DNA of 62,717 nucleotides, the filler included, from Bonamia ostreae (taxonomy: Eukaryota), in NCBI GenBank assembly GCA_040357525.1. It is 11 parts of 11 records of this genome, joined end to end, with 100 filler letters (N's around TTAATTAATTAA, not from the genome) between each part and the next. Parts side by side here need not be neighbours in the genome. Positions count along the whole stretch, not along the records: positions 23,020 to 28,638 come from JBDODL010000175.1; 10 more parts are not named here. One strand, given 5' to 3'. A program made the position numbers and the translations under genes. How positions within the stretch are numbered: the first letter of the stretch is position 1; every line of letters starts with the position of its first letter. The notes beneath the pieces were generated by a model. It was not told the DNA's origin. It saw only the letters and a list, made by a program, of their open reading frames with translations, and searched no databases. Positions 1-38,810 of this stretch are shown in pieces.

Positions 1-61
1 GAAAACAAAAATTCGCAAATTAAAATTTGCAGAAAACAAAAATTCGCAAAATATCAAAATT

Positions 62-1558
62 CTAATCAAAAACGACCTCCCAAACCAAAACAACGTCTTT
101 CGCTTCTTCCACAAACTCATCCTCAGTGCTCTCCTCGCCCTCTCCAACACGTTCCTCGCGCCAGCGAATGCGCTGAAGCATCAGACGCTTAAATTTCCGC
201 AGCCCGCTCGGCCCGCCCTCCACAAGAACGACGCAGCCGCGCGGCGCGATGGCGCCCACGCCCGTCAAATTCAGCTGGGCCGCGGAAACGTCGACTTTGA
301 AGCGAGAGCGCCCGTCCGAAAGCGATTTTATCGCGAACAAAGCCGCATCGACGCCGTTCCCCGTCGGCTCCATCGCTTTGCGCCGCTTCTTCTGCCTGCG
401 TTCCCCGGGCGTCAGCTTCCTCGTTTCGTTCTGCAGAAGGTGCGCCATCCGCCTTCTCTCCACCTTCGCTTTGACTTGCCGTTCGACGGCCGAAGGATCT
501 TGCACAGCCGAGTTTCCCAGGACGCGCATGACGTTGGCGAGGCTCACTCTGGCGTCCGGTGGCTCTTCTAACCCGAGTCGGACGCGTTCTGCTTGCACTT
601 CTAGTTTGGCGCGCTTCCTCATCCGCCGAGCTTTCTTCTTCTCTCTGTCGGTGAGGAACAGGGGGACCGGGTCGACGTTTCTTCGCGCGAGGAGGGGCTT
701 GACCGGAGGAGGATGTTGGACCAGATTTGTGATCATCTCTCCGCGCGCGTTGTCTTTGCCGCGCGAGTAGTGCGGTTGATGGATCAGTTCTCCGTCCCAC
801 CATTCCACGGCGAGAGCGGCTTTGCTCTTCAGTTTTTCGAGAAATCCGTCTTTTTTCGTGTTTTCGCCGAAGACTTGTGTTTTTAGTTCGGCTTCGCTGT
901 TCTCCGCTTTTAGCAGATTTTCCGACTGCTCAAAGTATTTAAACTCCTCGTCCGTTTCGGCCTCCTCGACGTTGTCTTCTTGTTTCGCCATGCTTTTGGA
1001 GAGGATCTTTGCTCGCATCGTGTGCGCCCGCTTTTCGTACGTCCCGGGCTTGACCATCTCCAAGGTTCTTCTCTTCCGAACTTGAGATTTCCGCGAATGG
1101 AAGGCCACCTCCGGGTCGAAGAAGGACGAGGAAGTTTGCCCGGAAAGAGAGCTCAGCGCTGCTTCGTTCGTGAAAATGGCGGTTTCTCTGGCTTTGCCGA
1201 AGTTCGGGTCGTAAGGCCCCTCGAACCTCTCGCGCTCGCTTCCGGGCATCCGCGTTTTGCTGATTCGGTGCGGCGTCTTCTTCGTTTCCGGCTTCTTCTC
1301 GCCGAACGCGTTCGGGAGATTGGAGAAGGCGGACGGCTTTGCGGCGCCGATGGCCTTGTTTCTCGCCGTGATTGTTTTGAGCCGTTTCACAAACGAGGGA
1401 ATGTAGACGTTGGCGAGAAATGGAGAAGGAGGGCTAAATATAGTTTTGATGAACCTTCGCCATTTGAGGTGTCTCGGCGGAACGGGGGATTTCAGCCCCG
1501 ATTGCGACGACTGCTTTTTGTCGTTTTTTGCTGGTTTTGTTTTGATTTTGGCAGCCAT
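62..1558 (-). CDS. PRPF3: U4/U6 snRNP protein Prp3; the 3' end probably continues past an intron near the window start
   Basis: VEWWD, ITNLVQHPPP, LFLTDREKKKARR, RVRLGLEEPPDARVSLANVMRVLG..AVQDPSAVE and RFKVDVSAAQLNLTG...VLVEGGP..LRKFKRLMLQRIRW are Prp3 motifs. Confidence 0.93.
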   Translation of the reverse strand: MAAKIKTKPAKNDKKQSSQSGLKSPVPPRHLKWRRFIKTIFSPPSPFLANVYIPSFVKRLKTITARNKAIGAAKPSAFSNLPNAFGEKKPETKKTPHRISKTRMPGSERERFEGPYDPNFGKARETAIFTNEAALSSLSGQTSSSFFDPEVAFHSRKSQVRKRRTLEMVKPGTYEKRAHTMRAKILSKSMAKQEDNVEEAETDEEFKYFEQSENLLKAENSEAELKTQVFGENTKKDGFLEKLKSKAALAVEWWDGELIHQPHYSRGKDNARGEMITNLVQHPPPVKPLLARRNVDPVPLFLTDREKKKARRMRKRAKLEVQAERVRLGLEEPPDARVSLANVMRVLGNSAVQDPSAVERQVKAKVERRRMAHLLQNETRKLTPGERRQKKRRKAMEPTGNGVDAALFAIKSLSDGRSRFKVDVSAAQLNLTGVGAIAPRGCVVLVEGGPSGLRKFKRLMLQRIRWREERVGEGEESTEDEFVEEAKDVVLVWEVVFD

Positions 1559-9778: not shown

Positions 9779-11423
9779 TTAATTGATCTGAATTAATTCC
9801 CTCATAAATTCTTTAGGCGAAACCACATCTGTCGACCCCGCAATAACATCTCTCGAATATGTTTTCGACACTTCTGAACAACACCTAATTTCTGAATAGC
9901 TCAATCCTCCCGCGACGAAAACTATTATTTTGCACATTTCTTTATTTTTCTTGCGTCTCCCCCTTTTCATCGATTTCTCCGGCGGCGGCTCTTGCACATA
10001 AGGGAAATTTTTCTTCGACAACGTATCTTCACAGATTTCCTTTTTATTAAAAAATGGAGACTTTTAGGACATTTTTAATCTTTGGCTCATATCTAGATAA
10101 ATTCAATTTGCTTTCTTTTTGAATCAGTTTATTTCTTTCTAAAGTCTCGTTGGGAATTTCTTCTGTAGTCCCCTTTGTAAGATTAAAAAAAGTACCAAAA
10201 AAGAAATATTTCTACACGCTTTTTTCTGTTTATTATTTAATTTTGCCGATTCCATTAAAGATTCGATGTCACTTTTTGGCACATTGGCGTAAGAGGTTTG
10301 TAGTATCATTATTAGACGCAATTTCTTCGCAGTACTTAATAACAAATATTTGCAAAATTTCGTGTTGGAATCAGTCAAAAATAATAAGATAAAAAATAAT
10401 CAGTCTCAAAAAATTGTTCAAACAAAATTTGGAAAATTCGGAAAAATAACGTTTAAACAAAAATGGCGAAAAAATCAGAAACAAAAAGCAAAATCGCGAA
10501 GAAAAATATAATAAAAATCACAAAAAATCGCGAAAAATTGCAAAGAAAAAATTTAAAATCACAAAAAATGGCGAAAAAATTGCAAATAAAAAATTTAAAA
10601 TCACAAAAAATGGCGAAAAAATTGCAAATAAAAAATTTAAAANNNNNNNNNNNNNNNNNNNNNNNNNNNNNNNNNNNNNNNNNNNNNNNNNNNNNNNNNN
10701 NNNNNNNNNNNNNNNNNNNNNNNNNNNNNNNNNNNNNNNNNNTCACAAAAAATGGCGAAAAAAATGCAAAGAAAAAATTTAAAATCACAAAAAAATGGCG
10801 AAAAAATTTAAAATCACAAAAAATGGCGAAAAAATTGCAAATAAAAAGTAAAATTGCGAAGAAAAAACAAAATCAAATATAAATAATTTATCGTAAAAAT
10901 TTCATAAAATATCGCAAAAAAAGTTGGAAAGATCGCAAAAAAATTTTGACAATAAAAATTTCAATAAATTAAATTAAAAAACGCAATCGAATCGTCTTTC
11001 ATAAAATTTGCAATTTTTTCAAGGGCTTTTTTCTTCGTGAAGACTTTTCCTCCTTCTTTCAGATTTGTGGCCATGTCTTGTTCGAACTCACTAAGCGCAC
11101 CCAAATTATGTTCCTTGTATTTGTCCATACAAGCTTTTGCAATTGAGATGTTTTTGGAAAAGGATTCGCTTAGTTTTTTGTATTGCGGAGCTTGGTTTAG
11201 AGCTTTGGAGAGATCTTTTAGTTGTTTGTGCGAAGTTTGTTTGATTTTGAGCAACGGATTGTTGGAGACGAATTCTTTGGACTTTTCTGGAATTTCGCGG
11301 ATGACAGTTGCAATGTGAACATCGCTGAACTCATTCCAAATAGGATCGTCTATCAGCATTTGTTTTACCATTTTGTCGCCTTCTTTATATCTTTTTTGTT
11401 CAATAAAATTGTTTTTTGTTGCT
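9779..11423 (-). CDS. SEC1: Sec1/Munc18 family protein, C-terminal part, 5' truncated
   Basis: DPIWNEFSDVHIA, LSKALNQAPQY, EQDMAT, KLRLIMI and IIVFVAGGLSYSEIRC..EVS...DVIAGST. A long intron contains tandem repeats. Confidence 0.88.
10460..10870. repeat. Intronic ~39-nt minisatellite spanning an assembly gap
   Basis: Repeated aaatcacaaaaaatggcgaaaaaattgcaaataaaaaattta units; the ORFs here are repeat artefacts. Confidence 0.85.
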
Positions 11424-23494: not shown

Positions 23495-25354
23495 TTAAAA
23501 AGTTCTTTTCTGCGCCGCAATTCTATCAAGTAATCTCTCCTTTTTCTCAGATTCATTCAAATCCTCATTTTCCAATTTTGGCGCATCTTGGTCAATTTGG
23601 AGATTTTCAAAGTTCTCAAACGGCGAGACGTGGTCTGGACACTTATTCCCCGGAAGATAATCGCCCACGGGCAAAATCTTGCCAAAATTGAGACAATCAA
23701 AAACATATTGAGATTGGACATTTTCAAAATTGTCTTTAGTTTTGCTAGCAGAAAATAAAGGTCTGTCGGAAATTTTGTGCGTCAAAAGAGGTTTGATTTT
23801 GTCCATCTTATCGAAAACATTTGTCTCGATATAAATCTTGCCTCCGAGAGCTTTAATAATGTACTCCAAAACATCGTAAGGAGTTTCTTTCGACAAAAGA
23901 AAAACAAAATTGTGGAACAAATTGTTATTGGACTTTAAAGTAATGTTCTGTTCGAATTTTGGCGGATAGTCCATTTTTTGGTCTTTGTAAAGCTTATAAA
24001 CGACAAATTTTAATAATGTGTGATAAAATTCGAGAAAGGCGACCAGAGAATTGAAATCGATTTTTTTGTTCTCCAACTATTTTTTTAGCCATTTTTCAAC
24101 CAATTTGTAAAAAGTTTTGGAGCCATTGATAAAAAATTGGCTAAAACGTTTTGAGTAAATTTATGAGGTTTGAGCCACGTTATCGAATGGCCATCGATAT
24201 CGACTTGAAAATAAAATCCCTTTAGAGATATAAAGGATTTTCTGAGCCATCCTTTGATAGCCGTCAGATGCAAAAACTCGTCATAAAGTCTTTGCAAATC
24301 TTCGCTTTTTTCAGGCCCAAAGCCTTTTACGGCGCGAGCTGGGACAGACAAAAACAAGCAAATCAGAGTTAGCGGGTCGTCCATGTCTTCGAGCGCTTCT
24401 CCAAAAGTCGGGTAGCGCTCTTTGACCAGATGGTCGTAATTTATTGACGGTTTGCTCTTCTTGACCGAAAGCAAATCGGCTGTTGACTTAAAAAACGACA
24501 TTAGAAAATTTTAGGAAGAGAAGAAAAAAGACATTGGAAAAATAAGTTTAACGACGGCACATAAAAATAATAAGCCCCGTTGAGTAACCAGGCAGTGCCT
24601 GGCGCTTGCATCACTTTGCTATGGCCACCGACACTGAGTGCGATTGTCGCCTGCTAGTGTCAGCAAATCAACAGCTCGCACTTTCTGCGGTTAGGACCCG
24701 GGGACTTTCCCAAAGACTTTATGGACATAAAGCCTCTAGACAAGCTTTAATCTGTGCCGAGCGAAATATGTGAGCGGAAATGGTACGGAGAATTTACGGT
24801 TATATGTTTTGTTTACGGCATGGTTTTTCAAAATAGTATGGCTCCAGGGAACACTACAGTGATCAGGAATATGCCGAAATCGTACTTTGGAGCGGTCGCT
24901 CGACAAAGCGATTAATTTCCGACTCTCGTGGGCGACGCAGTATGAACTGGTCGCCGAAAATTGCGGTTCCAGTAATGTTGGAACCGCGAGCCGTTGCGAT
25001 TTTGAGTGTCAAAATAAAAACAAATTTTGAGCGGGCTTTGGTTTTTTTCTTGGAATAAGCTTTAATGTCTCTATATTTGGCCAGCACCGGTTCTCTGCTG
25101 ATGCAGTTGATGTCGCGTTTGTCTAAAGGTCTTTTTGGGAAACAGTAATATATTTTGGTTTTGCTGAATTTTCTGTTTTTGGGGACTTGAGGATAAATGC
25201 CCTTTAGAATACAAAGTTTCCTGAAATCGGTCATTGAGATTTGCAATTTTTTGATGGCGCGCGAACGGGAAATGTATTCGAGAGGTTTTGTTAAACCTAA
25301 AGAATGTTTGTTCAGCCTCTTTTTGCCTTTCTTTTTTCTCTGTGCGTGACCCAT
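23495..25354 (-). CDS. PES1: Pescadillo/Nop7 ribosome biogenesis factor, 4 exons
   Basis: YISRSRAIKKLQIS..DFRKLCILKGIYP, DHLVKERYPTF..AL.DMDDPL, FLEFYHTLLKFV.YKLY, BRCT domain, YLPG..CPDHVSPF. Introns 25123-25143, 24487-25021 and 24077-24147. Confidence 0.95.
24552..24763 (-). ncRNA. RMRP: RNase MRP RNA, intronic in PES1
   Basis: On the minus strand: CR-I GGAAAGTCCCCGG, P8 GCAGAAAGTGC (GARAR loop), CR-V ACTCAACGGGGCTTA (P4 partner), P1 CGGCACA/TGTGCCG, P2 GCTTG/CAAGC, P3 hairpin, and P19 CCAGGCA-C-TGCCTGG. Confidence 0.92.
24807..24997 (-). ncRNA. snR30: U17/snR30-like H/ACA snoRNA, intronic in PES1
   Basis: 3' hairpin CGGC-ATATTCCTG(m1)...AAACCAT(m2)-GCCG followed by ACA (24810-24812). H box AAAGTA (24883-24888). 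Multibranched 5' domain. The 5' end is approximate. Confidence 0.85.
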
Positions 25355-25424
25355 TTGTAGGTCAAGGTTTTGTTAATTTTATGATAAACTATATTCGATA
25401 AGTTTAAGTTGAAAATAGCAATTT

Positions 25425-26405
25425 TTAGCTTTTATGATTATTATGATTAGTCTTCCTTCTATGCCTTAAATTAGACTTTTTCAAATCTGCACAATAAACA
25501 GCCAATGAGTGAATGTCGCTCTTTGCATCGATATATTGCTTTTTCAGTTCAATGTTTTCTTTTCTGAGGAACCGTTTGTCGTGTTTGCTCACTTGCAACT
25601 TTTCTCTTAACCTTTTTATTAATTTTGCCACCGATTTCTTTCTTTCGTTTTTTTGGTGGCAAAACGATTCTCTTCTGCGGTACAAACTCAAATTTTCTCT
25701 ATCTTTTCTTTTCCTCTCTGTCTCAGCAAAAGCGCTTGATTGTTCATTTCTAGAATAGTCTCCATTTCTGATTTGTTCGGTTTCGGAAATCAGGCTCAGT
25801 TCGTCATCACTGTTTTCCTTGTGTTCCGACAATTTTTCTGCTCTGTTTGACATCAAGAATCGCTGATTTTCAATCCATTTTCGAGCCTCTCTCCACGTCT
25901 CAGAAGATTTTCGCTTTAAGTTGCCCAAATCAATTTTCAACGCGGCAACCTCGTCATCTCTAAGCTGCAATCTTGTTTTAATGGAGTCATTTTCTTTTTG
26001 CAATTCTCTATTTTTCTTCTCGTAATCGTCTAACTGTTTTCTCAGTTTGGCGTTTCTCTCTTTTTCTGAACTCGCTAATGCTTCAAGTGCAACATTTTTT
26101 CTTTCAAACTCTTTAACTTTTTCCAGAAAAAATAATTTGTCTGTGGTTCTTTTGTCTTCTGAAAAACTGTTGTTGCTCTGCACTTTCAGAGTTTCAATTT
26201 CTCGTCGAAGTTTTTTGATTTCTTCTGTTTCAGCGATTTTGTTTTTGAAAGACAAAACAGATTGTTTCGAACGAAAGGATTTTCTTTTGTCGAATTTTTT
26301 GCGTGTTTTTTTAAATAAATTGTTTTTCGATTTTGTTTTTGCGCTCTCTTCCGAGAAATCACTGTTACTGTTGCATAAATGGCATTTTTTCTTGCTTTTG
26401 GCCAT
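25425..26405 (-). CDS. Hypothetical coiled-coil protein
   Basis: 326-aa ORF with E/K/R-rich heptads. Confidence 0.6.
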   Translation of the reverse strand: MAKSKKKCHLCNSNSDFSEESAKTKSKNNLFKKTRKKFDKRKSFRSKQSVLSFKNKIAETEEIKKLRREIETLKVQSNNSFSEDKRTTDKLFFLEKVKEFERKNVALEALASSEKERNAKLRKQLDDYEKKNRELQKENDSIKTRLQLRDDEVAALKIDLGNLKRKSSETWREARKWIENQRFLMSNRAEKLSEHKENSDDELSLISETEQIRNGDYSRNEQSSAFAETERKRKDRENLSLYRRRESFCHQKNERKKSVAKLIKRLREKLQVSKHDKRFLRKENIELKKQYIDAKSDIHSLAVYCADLKKSNLRHRRKTNHNNHKS

Positions 26406-27418
26406 GTTTTTAACTATTCAAACGGAGAATTTATAGTAAAACGCTTAACAGAATGTTATCTTGCCTCAAAGGAAATTCTCCCAAAAATGGTAACAATGGA
26501 GAAAACGGTAAATTTTCATTACCGAATTTATTAAGAACAAAGTTCTGCTGACGTTGAATCCAACGAAGAAATGATACGGAAAAGAAATGTTATCTTTGAA
26601 AAATTTAAACGAATCGTCAAAAAGCGCAAGGAACAGAAAGCGAAAGATTATATGAAGAAAATCGATATTGTAGAAATCGAAGAAAAGATTAAATAGTAAA
26701 TTGATACACATTTATTAATACAATTTTGGAGTTTTCAGGAAATAGTCAGACCTTCTGTTATGATTCCACCGAAAACAGTCAATACATAAAACAGACAAAA
26801 GTATAAAAATGTCGACAATAAGAATCAACACTGCTATCATTAAAATTATAGTTTGAATATCCATTATTATTGTGGCAAATATATGTTTGTGTTTATGCTG
26901 TATATTTTAAATATTTTTTTTATTTGCTACAATGGTTATCATAAATTAAAATTAGATTCTCGTTGTTCGTCCTGTAAAAATATTCAAATTTAAATATTCA
27001 AATTATTATTTTTAATTTTACTTTATTTCCACTTGGACTCAAATAAATAATAATATTCAAAACCTTTTTGGTTTTGAATATTTATCAAATAAATCGCGTA
27101 AATGACATTGAAGATGATAAAGACAAAATCGAAAAAAGTGAACTTGGGTGCAAAAAGAAGCAAAAATAAATCCAAATACGAAAAGAAATCACGCAAAAAA
27201 GAATTAAAAGAGCTCAAAAACTGAAAAACAAAATATATTGTTCATCAACTTTTGTGTAAACAAATTTGAATATACTTTCAAAAATAAATTCGCAAAAATG
27301 TTCAAATTTTATCGTGATATCAACTTTAATAAGAGATAAAATTTTGTTGTTAATAAATATTGTTACAATCTAAAAAATCGTTAATAAATATTGTTAATAG
27401 ACAATTTTCGCAAGTCAT

Positions 27419-37077: not shown

Positions 37078-38810
37078 ATGGAGCAGCTGAACAAACTGTA
37101 CGTTTTCATCTGCCCCAAAACAACGGGGGACGCCATGATGCTCAAACCCGGGAGCCTCGCCATTTTGGGGCGAGCCCAGTTCCCAAGATTCTCCAAAAAG
37201 TAAAATTAGCCATTTTAGAATAAGCAGAGAACACGTGGAAATAAAAGTCTTGGACCAAAACCAAGACGGCAAAATTTCCATTAAACCGGTTTCCGCAGTT
37301 TAAATTTAGCTCGCGAAGCCCATTTTTTACAAGAAACACGGCGAAAAGTGGAAACGGCTTTTGACAGACGAAGAAACGTACCTCGGCCAAAAAGACGTGT
37401 TTTCTCTCGACAGAAACATTGACGAAAATCTCAACTCCACTTTTTACATTCGCTACTGCTCCGTCGGCGATTTTAATCGGACGGAAGGCAACAAAAGTTC
37501 GCTTTCCGTAACAACTTAAGAAATCGGGTCGATTCCGAACGAACAAGAAAAAAAAGAAGAATTGCAAAACGAACGAAACTCAATCGTCATTAATTGGAAT
37601 TACCAAAATTTTCGATCGATGAAACCACCAAAATACAGTTTTGAGATTATTGTTAAAATTTGCATATTTTTGTGGTTCGTTTTTAGATCACCCCAATTTC
37701 GGCACTGTTTTGATTCAAAAACGAGAAAAATTTAATTGGAAAATGGAACTGCTCAACTATGTCAAAAATGGCTACAAGCTTCCAAAGTACTCCGAATCGA
37801 TATATTTCGAAGACGAAACGTGCGTTATCATGTTAATTAGCGAAAATAAAATTTAGATACGACTCGTTTAACAAGTCCCAGCGACATTTGTTGGTGTTGC
37901 CACGGCAGCATTTGTTGTACTTGGCTGATTTGAATCGAAGTCACATAAGTTTAATTGAGTCGATGGCAGAACGAGCAGAATGGATTTCTGAACAGTTTTT
38001 TGACAAATGGCACTTTTAAGAATATTTTACTTTTTGATTTTTCCAATTTTATTGCGATTATGCCAAAAAAATTGCAAAATTTTGTTTTAAAAGCAATTTT
38101 TATTCGAATAAATTAAATATTTTTGTTTCGAAAGCGATTTTTACGCGAATTTGCAAACTATCAAAATTGCAAAATTTTGTTTTAAAAGCAATTTTTATTC
38201 GAATAAATTAAATATTTNNNNNNNNNNNNNNNNNNNNNNNNNNNNNNNNNNNNNNNNNNNNNNNNNNNNNNNNNNNNNNNNNNNNNNNNNNNNNNNNNNN
38301 NNNNNNNNNNNNNNNNNTTGTTTCGAAAGCAATTTTTACGTGAATTTGCAATCTCAAAATTGCAAAATTTTGTTTTAAAAGCAATTTTTATGCGACAAAG
38401 TGCAAAATCTAAAATACGATTAAAGCTATGAAAAAGAAGAATCAATTAAAATGATTTCTGGTTTTCATGCAAATCCTTCAATGGCACAAATCCATTTACA
38501 TGTCATTTCAACTGATTTCAATTCCAACTTTTTACGCAAACAAAGCCATTACAATTCTTTCAACACTCCTTTTCTAATACCTCCACGTAAAATATCTGAA
38601 CTGTTGGCGAAATCGGGCCAAATCAGCCTAAACACATCCCATTATTCAAAAATGTTATTTAGTGAAATGTGTTGCAATCGTTGTAAAAACAGTTATAAAG
38701 AAGTCAGAGAATTAAAAAATCATTTGTCGAATTGTGTCCAAACCGAATTTGATGATAGTTATTTGAACGAAGACGTTATGGTTAAGAATAAGGAGATGCA
38801 ACATAATTGA
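37078..38810 (+). CDS. APTX: Aprataxin (FHA, HIT and zinc finger), multi-exon
   Basis: Spliced FHA LGRAQF...ISREHVEI; HIT RHLLVLPR, GFHANPSMAQIHLHVIS.DF and HYNSFNT; C-terminal CNRC...HL..C. Confidence 0.88.

Follow-up and report, generated by a model that had tools for sequence, protein, structure and literature searches.

A Pescadillo Intron of Bonamia ostreae Carries a Predicted RNase MRP RNA and a U17/snR30-Like H/ACA RNA

Results

The Pescadillo Locus and Its Public Annotation

Bonamia ostreae is a rhizarian parasite of oysters. We analysed a 62,717-nucleotide (nt) stretch of its genome (GenBank assembly GCA_040357525.1; the whole stretch is called the window below), the minus strand of which encodes the ribosome-biogenesis protein Pescadillo (PES1), or NOP7, with the ATG at 25354 and the stop codon near 23495. 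The host locus lies wholly within one 5619-nt contig (23020..28638), and its three introns measure 21, 535, and 71 nt. The 535-nt intron is the subject of this work: it holds two RNA segments, both sense to Pescadillo, of which the upstream one is in all probability a U17/snR30-like box H/ACA RNA and the downstream one is predicted to be the RNase MRP RNA. The G+C content of the two RNA segments is 0.49-0.50, and that of the flanks and the spacer between them is 0.26-0.40. The coordinates of all features are collected in Table 1.

A preliminary description of the sequence had named the host gene PES1/Pescadillo, and this identity was borne out by the Pfam profile PF06732 (Pescadillo_N), which matched the three exon pieces with 78.9, 112.4, and 45.5 bits against a cut-off of 28.6. 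The matched profile positions follow one another across the exons (9-92, 99-205, and 206-253), and therefore no segment of the domain is lost across the 535-nt intron. A BRCT domain comes after Pescadillo_N (PF16589 BRCT_2, 26.5 bits, marginally below the cut-off of 27.3). Translation of the 21-nt intron gives a 7-residue insert that is missing in all four homologues. The same description spoke of a genome of ~20-nt introns; within the Pescadillo gene, which is the scope examined here, the intron at 25143..25123 agrees with that statement and the 71-nt intron at 24147..24077 departs from it. B. ostreae introns have been described as canonical, with a mean of 2 per mRNA, in a comparative genomics study of Ascetosporea (PMC11069148).

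Exon 2 is 100% identical to a public entry, 'hypothetical protein MHBO_000877 [Bonamia ostreae]' (NCBI, 311 residues). That model opens with MSFFK joined to STADL.., at an intron-internal ATG (24486-24501), and is without the 104 residues of exon 1 because the 535-nt intron was missed; the public protein has thereby lost its N-terminal 104 residues. Among the 17 candidates scored in the protein collection, no identical protein spanning exon 1 and exon 2 was found (the 10 matches were all from other species, with 52-73% identity), and the 535-nt splice is therefore without a second, protein-level record. An RNA run labelled mollusc metagenome (X2) contains a contig with 228 nt of the 3' part of Pescadillo (23600-23827) and zero differences, as would be expected of a parasite living in molluscs. 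No contig of a further run, X3, could be placed on the gene, which does not speak for absence.

Removal of the 535-nt Intron in RNA

The intron starts with GTTTTTATTTTG and ends with ..TTTTCTAATGTCGTTTTTTAAG, and a CTAAT element is found at 24504..24500, 13 nt before the end. Exon 1 closes with ..ARSKF at 25022 and exon 2 starts with STADL.. at 24486; from these codon boundaries the intron is of phase 0. Unspliced read-through meets a stop codon at 24865..24863. To examine splicing, we aligned contigs of the public run X1, in which 78% of the gene's sampled words are present, on 23600-25400. One contig (depth 3202, shorter side 30 letters) joins 24486 to 25022 and skips exactly 535 nt. X1 contigs were found without the 21-, 71-, and 535-nt introns, each of which is bounded by GT..AG, and X1 therefore contains RNA-derived sequence; the run differs from the window in four places, and is thus not simply the same sequence. 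Splicing is supported by the contig joint together with the continuity of the protein across it, seen both in the Pescadillo_N profile and in the alignment of homologues. We concluded that the 535-nt intron is removed in RNA, and the phase 0 junction of ARSKF and STADL, as first proposed, holds.

Unspliced X1 contigs span the whole intron as well, at 24457-24845 (two differing letters) and 24847-25051 (none). The first of these starts in exon 2 and crosses the 3' splice site, the MRP RNA, and the spacer without a break, ending in the U17-like RNA. Its two differences from the window are at 24529 and 24542, both in T runs of the intron 3' flank; the MRP RNA, the spacer, and the covered part of the U17-like RNA are unchanged. 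The 535-nt intron is represented by contigs with depths of 3187 and 1618, whereas the retained 71-nt intron has a depth of 95 versus ~5800 for its exons, a contrast that is a hint of little weight, since contig depth is unable to rank the parts of a gene.

A Complete RNase MRP RNA

An Rfam scan (cmscan, 4227 families) of the whole window returned RNase_MRP (RF00030) as its sole above-threshold match, with 75.6 bits (gathering score, 50), an E value of 3.7e-19 for the whole window, and a match to the full model (positions 1-266). With the best match per clan kept at overlaps, the only families of the P/MRP type listed for this segment at E<=10 were RNase_MRP and the Giardia RNase MRP (19.1 bits), which points to MRP rather than RNase P. 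The landmarks that had been read from the sequence beforehand (CR-I, a GARAR P8, CR-V, and helices P1, P2, P3, and P19) could all be placed by coordinate in the Rfam alignment. CR-I and CR-V, the pairing of which forms the P4 pseudoknot, are both present in the Bonamia RNA, and the GARAR pentaloop of P8 is a signature of MRP RNA (PMC4287351). Membership of the predicted RNA in the RNase MRP family is thus established by sequence and structure; by family membership, it would be expected to assemble with Pop/Rpp proteins and to cleave the internal transcribed spacer 1 (ITS1) of pre-rRNA.

The completeness of the MRP RNA and its score well above threshold also bear on the explanation that the long intron is an artefact or a silent relic, either mis-assembled or inserted, from which neither RNA accumulates. 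The assembly is fragmented, the window being a chain of ~5.7-kb contigs, and the RNA evidence comes from a single run in the form of contigs only. These same X1 contigs, with their four differences from the window, reproduce both the whole intron and its precise removal, and we regard an artefact as very improbable.

A U17/snR30-Like RNA Upstream of the MRP RNA

The upstream segment was matched by SNORA73 (RF00045) at 24932..24807, with an E value of 8.2e-5 on 901 nt and of 0.0057 on the whole window. The preliminary description had called it an snR30/U17 H/ACA RNA and proposed the SNORA73 model as a check. A match was indeed obtained, and m1, m2, the H box, the internal hairpin, and the ACA box were all located; the score of 27.9 bits falls below the gathering score of 74. 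The SNORA73 model is drawn mostly from animal sequences. The upstream RNA is classed here as U17-like by its motifs, and not as an Rfam member, and we consider the assignment highly probable.

In the predicted fold, m1 (AUAUUCCUA/G pattern) and m2 are placed on opposite strands at the base of the pocket in the 3' hairpin, which has the basal stem CGGCAU/AUGCCG, and the distance from the upper stem to the ACA is 14 nt. The top of the pocket is 14-16 nt from the ACA in U17/snR30, and the same m1 and m2 variants are given for Tetrahymena and Candida glabrata (Table 1 of PMC7601244). The fold has a z score of -4.4, and none of 200 shuffled sequences folded equally well (0/200). Neither motif is enriched alone: on both strands of the window there are 4 matches to ATATTCCT versus 1.9 expected and 9 to AAACCAT versus 17 expected. 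By our own estimate, m1 and m2 would occur ~40 nt apart and in the right order by chance with a probability of ~0.02. For the U17 reading it is the joint placement of m1 and m2 that matters, next to the sub-threshold covariance score. A U17/snR30 RNA would be expected to pair through m1 and m2 with rm1 and rm2 in expansion segment 6 of 18S rRNA; no 18S rRNA was found in the window by the Rfam scan.

The low SNORA73 score and the lack of enrichment of the single motifs would also be expected if only the MRP RNA were functional and the upstream element were a different or decayed H/ACA-like sequence with chance m1- and m2-like words. We judge this improbable, because the two motifs face each other in one pocket closed by the stem CGGCAU/AUGCCG and the H box, internal hairpin, and ACA stand where they are expected; the E value of 0.0057 comes from a search of the whole window with 4227 families, the G+C content of the segment is 49% within an AT-rich intron, and zero X1 differences were found over 24847-25051. 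The same architecture also lies upstream of an MRP RNA in a metagenome contig described below.

Spacer and Minor Alternative Splice

The two RNAs are parted by a short spacer, the length of which is 47 nt (from 24807 to 24759) and not about 44 nt as estimated at first. No tRNA that could be used as a processing signal was found, the window having 0 tRNA genes. An X1 contig with a depth of 349, compared with 3202 for the main joint (about one tenth), joins 24486 to 24817 and skips 330 nt with CT..AC on the plus strand (GT..AG in sense; shorter side 29 letters). The excised 330-nt piece contains the MRP RNA alone, and the U17 sequence is left with exon 2 on one spliced molecule. The minor splice site may be a fail-safe or mere noise; noise is a possible reading because the U17 ACA box is lost and a premature stop is left.

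Table 1. Positions of the features of the Pescadillo locus (window coordinates) and of the RNAs on metagenome contig L002 (contig coordinates).
Feature	Position	Strand	Basis
Pescadillo exon 1a, ATG 25354	25144..25354	-	PF06732 profile 9-92 on 25354..25022; N-termini of 4/4 homologues align
Intron, 21 nt, GTTTCCC..TTTAG	25123..25143	-	Missing from one RNA contig (run X1), depth 3984 of 3984
Pescadillo exon 1b, end ..ARSKF	25022..25122	-	Pfam match and homologue alignment
Spliceosomal intron, 535 nt, phase 0, GT..AG	24487..25021	-	Joint 24486 to 25022, run X1; Pfam profile continues 92 to 99
U17/snR30-like box H/ACA RNA, ~187 nt predicted, ends predicted	24807..24993	-	SNORA73 27.9 bits, motifs, and fold
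U17-like 5' domain, Y-shaped	24993-24920	-	Predicted fold
U17-like H box AAAUUA (ANANNA)	24918-24913	-	Motif position
U17-like internal hairpin	24909-24884	-	Predicted fold
U17-like 3' hairpin	24876-24816	-	Predicted fold
U17-like m1 AUAUUCCUG	24872-24864	-	Motif position
U17-like m2 AAACCAU	24826-24820	-	Motif position
U17-like ACA box	24812-24810	-	Motif position
Minor alternative 5' splice site GUAAAC, overlaps ACA box	24811..24816	-	Joint 24486 to 24817, 1 contig
U17-MRP spacer, 47 nt, 40% G+C, unstructured	24760..24806	-	RNAfold 0.0 kcal/mol
RNase MRP RNA, predicted, 204 nt (205 if G24555 closes P1)	24556..24759	-	RF00030 75.6 bits, model 1-266
MRP P1 CGGCAC/GUGCCG	24759-24754 / 24560-24555	-	Covariance alignment
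MRP P2 GCUUGU/GCAAGC	24745-24740 / 24609-24604	-	Covariance alignment
MRP P3, shortened, 19 consensus positions deleted	24738-24712	-	Covariance alignment
MRP CR-I GGGAAAGUCCCCGG	24711-24698	-	High posterior probability in alignment
MRP P8 CGCA-GAAAG-UGCG, GARAR loop	24689-24677	-	Covariance alignment
MRP P19 hairpin	24602-24588	-	Covariance alignment
MRP CR-V ACUCAACGGGGCUUAUU	24585-24569	-	High posterior probability in alignment
Intron 3' flank, 69 nt, AT-rich; T5, T6, T4, T6 runs, branch-like CTAAT, 3' splice site	24487..24555	-	Sequence inspection
Pescadillo exon 2, STADL..FTQN	24148..24486	-	PF06732 profile 99-205; 100% identity to B. ostreae protein model
Intron, 71 nt	24077..24147	-	Joint 24076 to 24148, 1 contig, shorter side 195 letters; also removed in public protein model
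Pescadillo exon 3 and BRCT domain, to stop	23495..24076	-	PF06732 profile 206-253; BRCT_2 marginal
L002 U17-like RNA	ends at 853	-	SNORA73 19.5 bits, fungal Afu_309 19.2 bits
L002 RNase MRP RNA, 388 nt	811..424	-	99.4 bits
L002 nuclear RNase P RNA, 400 nt	413..14	-	72.9 bits

Possible Biogenesis of the Two RNAs

The best reading of the locus, to which we give a probability of about 0.6, is that both RNAs are matured from the Pescadillo transcript of RNA polymerase II (Pol II). Pol II would transcribe Pescadillo and the spliceosome would excise the 535-nt intron, from which a U17/snR30-type RNA (for 18S rRNA processing) and the RNase MRP RNA (for ITS1 cleavage) would be matured. Each RNA would probably be defined by its own assembling proteins, that is, Cbf5/Nop10/Nhp2/Gar1 on U17 and Pop/Rpp on MRP, and the bound proteins would block the exonucleases that degrade the remainder of the debranched intron, by analogy with vertebrate intronic U17 and Drosophila intronic RNase P RNA. 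Because two ribonucleoproteins (RNPs) would occupy one intron, the 47-nt spacer would also have to be opened, for which an endonuclease is a candidate. On a minority route, use of the alternative 5' splice site at 24816 would free a 330-nt lariat with the MRP RNA alone. The host protein and the two RNAs would, under such a scheme, be co-regulated.

The position of the two RNAs agrees with this proposal, as the 5' splice site is 28 nt from the U17-like RNA and the latter is 47 nt from the MRP RNA, gaps so short that there is little room for a promoter. The MRP RNA itself contains a T5 run (24567-24563), located 3 nt ahead of the 3' strand of P1. Such a run would tend to stop RNA polymerase III (Pol III) early, a point against a separate Pol III unit for the MRP RNA.

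Several points weigh against maturation of both RNAs from the intron. T5 and T6 runs 14 and 27 nt after the MRP RNA and a TAAAT ~33-37 nt upstream of it would be compatible with nested transcription by Pol III. The 47-nt spacer showed neither a stem-loop like those of RNase III substrates (RNAfold) nor another known signal for cleavage, and the SNORA73 score of the U17-like RNA is far under the Rfam cut-off. When the minor 5' splice site is used, the U17-like RNA loses its ACA box and the mRNA acquires a premature stop, and the site is not conserved in the metagenome contig described below. As to the RNA data, the shorter sides of the 535-nt and 330-nt joints (30 and 29 letters) are below the bridging rule of 31 and each joint comes from one contig of one run; the label of run X1, 'RNA?', is a guess, and the unspliced X1 contigs could come from pre-mRNA or from contaminating DNA. 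The RNA runs are assembled contigs, from which mature ends, cap, and abundance are not readable.

The first of these points leads to the explanation that the U17-like RNA is intron-derived and the MRP RNA is a nested gene, a unit of its own in sense orientation inside the intron, with a promoter either of the Pol III type-3-like class or of its own for Pol II. In every animal examined, MRP RNA is made by Pol III (PMC4287351), the Ostreococcus MRP RNA has been judged to be made by Pol III (PMC7671301), and the Drosophila melanogaster MRP RNA gene is also intronic, in antisense orientation and with its own proximal sequence element (PSE) and TATA (PMC1796607). In Bonamia, the T5 and T6 runs downstream of the MRP 3' end could serve as terminators, and the AT-rich TAAAT is ~35 nt upstream. 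Against a nested gene stand the internal T5 of the MRP RNA, close ahead of the P1 3' strand, and the U17-like RNA only 47 nt away; both downstream T runs are altered in X1 (24529 and 24542), with the MRP RNA unchanged, and in the metagenome contig the RNase P RNA begins 10 nt after the MRP RNA, which favours co-transcription in that organism. We regard a nested gene as possible but on balance unlikely, and the reading retained here is that the Pol II transcript of Pescadillo gives rise to both.

In yeast, Nop7 is an 'A3 factor' whose action comes immediately after MRP has cut ITS1; these factors are required when the precursor is trimmed from A3, where MRP cleaves, to the 5' end of 5.8S rRNA. 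If this role carries over to Bonamia, the host protein and its passenger RNA would act in consecutive steps.

A U17-MRP-RNase P Cluster in a Metagenome Contig

We scanned a metagenome collection with the pattern m1-gap-m2-gap-CR-I and obtained two loci, L001 and L002. At L001, no RNA family reached an E value better than 1.1 around the pattern, and the match is due to chance. L002 is real, an unrelated contig of 1113 nt, on the minus strand of which three predicted RNAs are arranged in tandem between 14 and 1050: a U17-like RNA, an RNase MRP RNA, and a nuclear RNase P RNA. The spacers measure 41 nt (U17-MRP) and 10 nt (MRP-RNase P), T6 is found at the contig end, and internal runs of T9, T5, and T5 occur in the three RNAs. 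The U17-like domains are in the same order as in Bonamia. The spacing between the U17-like and MRP RNAs was set by the search pattern, and its similarity to that of Bonamia is therefore no evidence.

A promoter upstream of the RNase P RNA would not fit into the 10-nt gap, which favours co-transcription of the L002 RNAs. As in Bonamia, the U17-like RNA is directly upstream of the MRP RNA, on the same strand and across a short spacer, with T runs inside the RNAs; unlike in Bonamia, an RNase P RNA follows and the RNAs are much larger. The contig suggests that the U17-MRP linkage recurs outside Bonamia and that clusters of this kind are not confined to a single parasite. In the literature searched, no description of a U17-MRP-RNase P cluster was found.

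A wider and more doubtful proposal, which we hold to be rather unlikely as a whole, is that some protists express the RNAs for rRNA and tRNA processing as a Pol II 'processing-RNA cassette'. In the Bonamia version, the choice of splice site would decide between mRNA with the full intron (25021) and an MRP-only lariat at the expense of mRNA and U17 (24816); the version of another eukaryote would be U17-MRP-RNase P.

Surroundings of the Locus

An open reading frame of 330 residues, rich in lysine and glutamate, lies upstream of Pescadillo on the same strand (25425-26417), and its stop is separated from the Pescadillo ATG by 70 nt (25355-25424). Because this gap is so short, the Pescadillo promoter must be very short or inside the neighbouring gene. 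The window is a chain of separate ~5.7-kb contigs joined by ten N44-TTAATTAATTAA-N44 linkers (5666-57162), with plain 100-N gaps at 10643-10742 and 38218-38317; genes on different segments are therefore not physically linked. At the first bases of another contig (57164-57232) we noted a 69-nt near-perfect palindrome with sub-threshold matches to mir-153 and MIR774 on both strands. Rather than a microRNA, a terminal hairpin or a feature of the assembly is the probable explanation, and the palindrome is unrelated to the Pescadillo intron.

Discussion

The RNA of RNase MRP, an essential ribozyme, is a textbook case of a stand-alone gene, transcribed by Pol III in animals and plants and by Pol II in budding yeast. 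The premise of the preliminary description, that MRP RNA is usually a stand-alone unit, is thus correct, and a precedent for Pol II synthesis is yeast NME1 (PMC7277114). NME1 shares its Pol II origin with the route proposed for Bonamia; unlike the Bonamia RNA, it is stand-alone and neither intronic nor clustered.

We searched the literature on the location, transcription, and clustering of MRP genes, some MRP gene surveys and supplements lying outside that search, and found neither a sense-strand intronic MRP RNA nor a cluster containing one, in agreement with the preliminary description, the author of which knew of no account of such an arrangement. The parts consulted of papers on Kuraishia, Trichoplax, Giardia/Trichomonas, and Ostreococcus report no intronic or clustered MRP RNA. 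No entry for the MRP and U17 RNAs of B. ostreae was found in any record reachable by search, and a term search of the accessible text of the Ascetosporea genomics paper (PMC11069148) gave no mention of snoRNAs or MRP. As far as we could find, the Bonamia RNA is the first sense-strand intronic MRP RNA, with a companion U17-like RNA and a related U17-MRP-RNase P cluster elsewhere.

The case most like that of Bonamia is the RNase P RNA of insects and crustaceans, which is intronic (PMC4287351, PMC6797745). As in Bonamia, a catalytic RNA of the P/MRP family is carried in sense orientation in the intron of a protein gene transcribed by Pol II, and theirs is without evident Pol III signals. In Drosophila, this RNA matures through splicing together with trimming by Rat1/Xrn2 and by the exosome, during which a subset of its proteins (Rpp proteins) protects it (PMC6797745). 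The insect and crustacean introns contain the RNase P RNA alone, whereas that of Bonamia would combine an MRP RNA with an H/ACA RNA, in a host gene for ribosome biogenesis and in a parasite belonging to the Rhizaria; the route of processing was shown for Drosophila and is proposed by analogy for Bonamia. In contrast to the intronic RNase P RNA, MRP RNA genes have Pol III signals in 26 of the 26 insects surveyed (Manivannan et al., PMC4287351). The MRP RNA of D. melanogaster lies physically within an intron, that of CG10365, like the Bonamia RNA, but it is antisense to the host, and the PSE and TATA that it has of its own make it an independent Pol III gene (Woodhams et al., PMC1796607). The Ostreococcus MRP RNA is intergenic and uncapped and is followed by a T stretch (PMC7671301).

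Vertebrate U17 is intronic (in introns of U17HG and in six introns of Xenopus rpS8) and is freed by exonucleolytic trimming (PMC7601244). The U17-like RNA of Bonamia resembles it in that both lie within introns of host genes transcribed by Pol II and both have m1, m2, H, and ACA motifs. The vertebrate introns hold one U17 each, whereas the Bonamia intron adds the RNA of an unrelated RNP 47 nt downstream, and the Rfam score of its U17-like RNA is sub-threshold. Intronic or polycistronic snoRNA clusters are found in plants, Ostreococcus, and yeasts (PMC7671301, PMC7277114). There too, several small nucleolar RNAs are carried per precursor and cuts are needed between them; those clusters consist of C/D and H/ACA guide RNAs, and we found no described cluster with an MRP RNA.

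The move of RNase P RNA into an intron of insects and crustaceans was an unexpected switch of polymerase and biogenesis, and a sense intronic MRP RNA would be the matching case in a distant lineage, the Rhizaria. A U17 sharing its intron would break the habit of one RNA per intron and would require a way to part two unrelated RNPs. For the parasite, one promoter would feed 18S processing, ITS1 cleavage, and the factors of 60S maturation. The metagenome contig supplies a concrete pattern with which eukaryotic genomes can be searched. If the wider proposal of a processing-RNA cassette is true, the U17-MRP linkage and the Pol II or polycistronic synthesis of P/MRP RNAs would go back further, or occur more widely, than models from animals, plants, and yeast imply.

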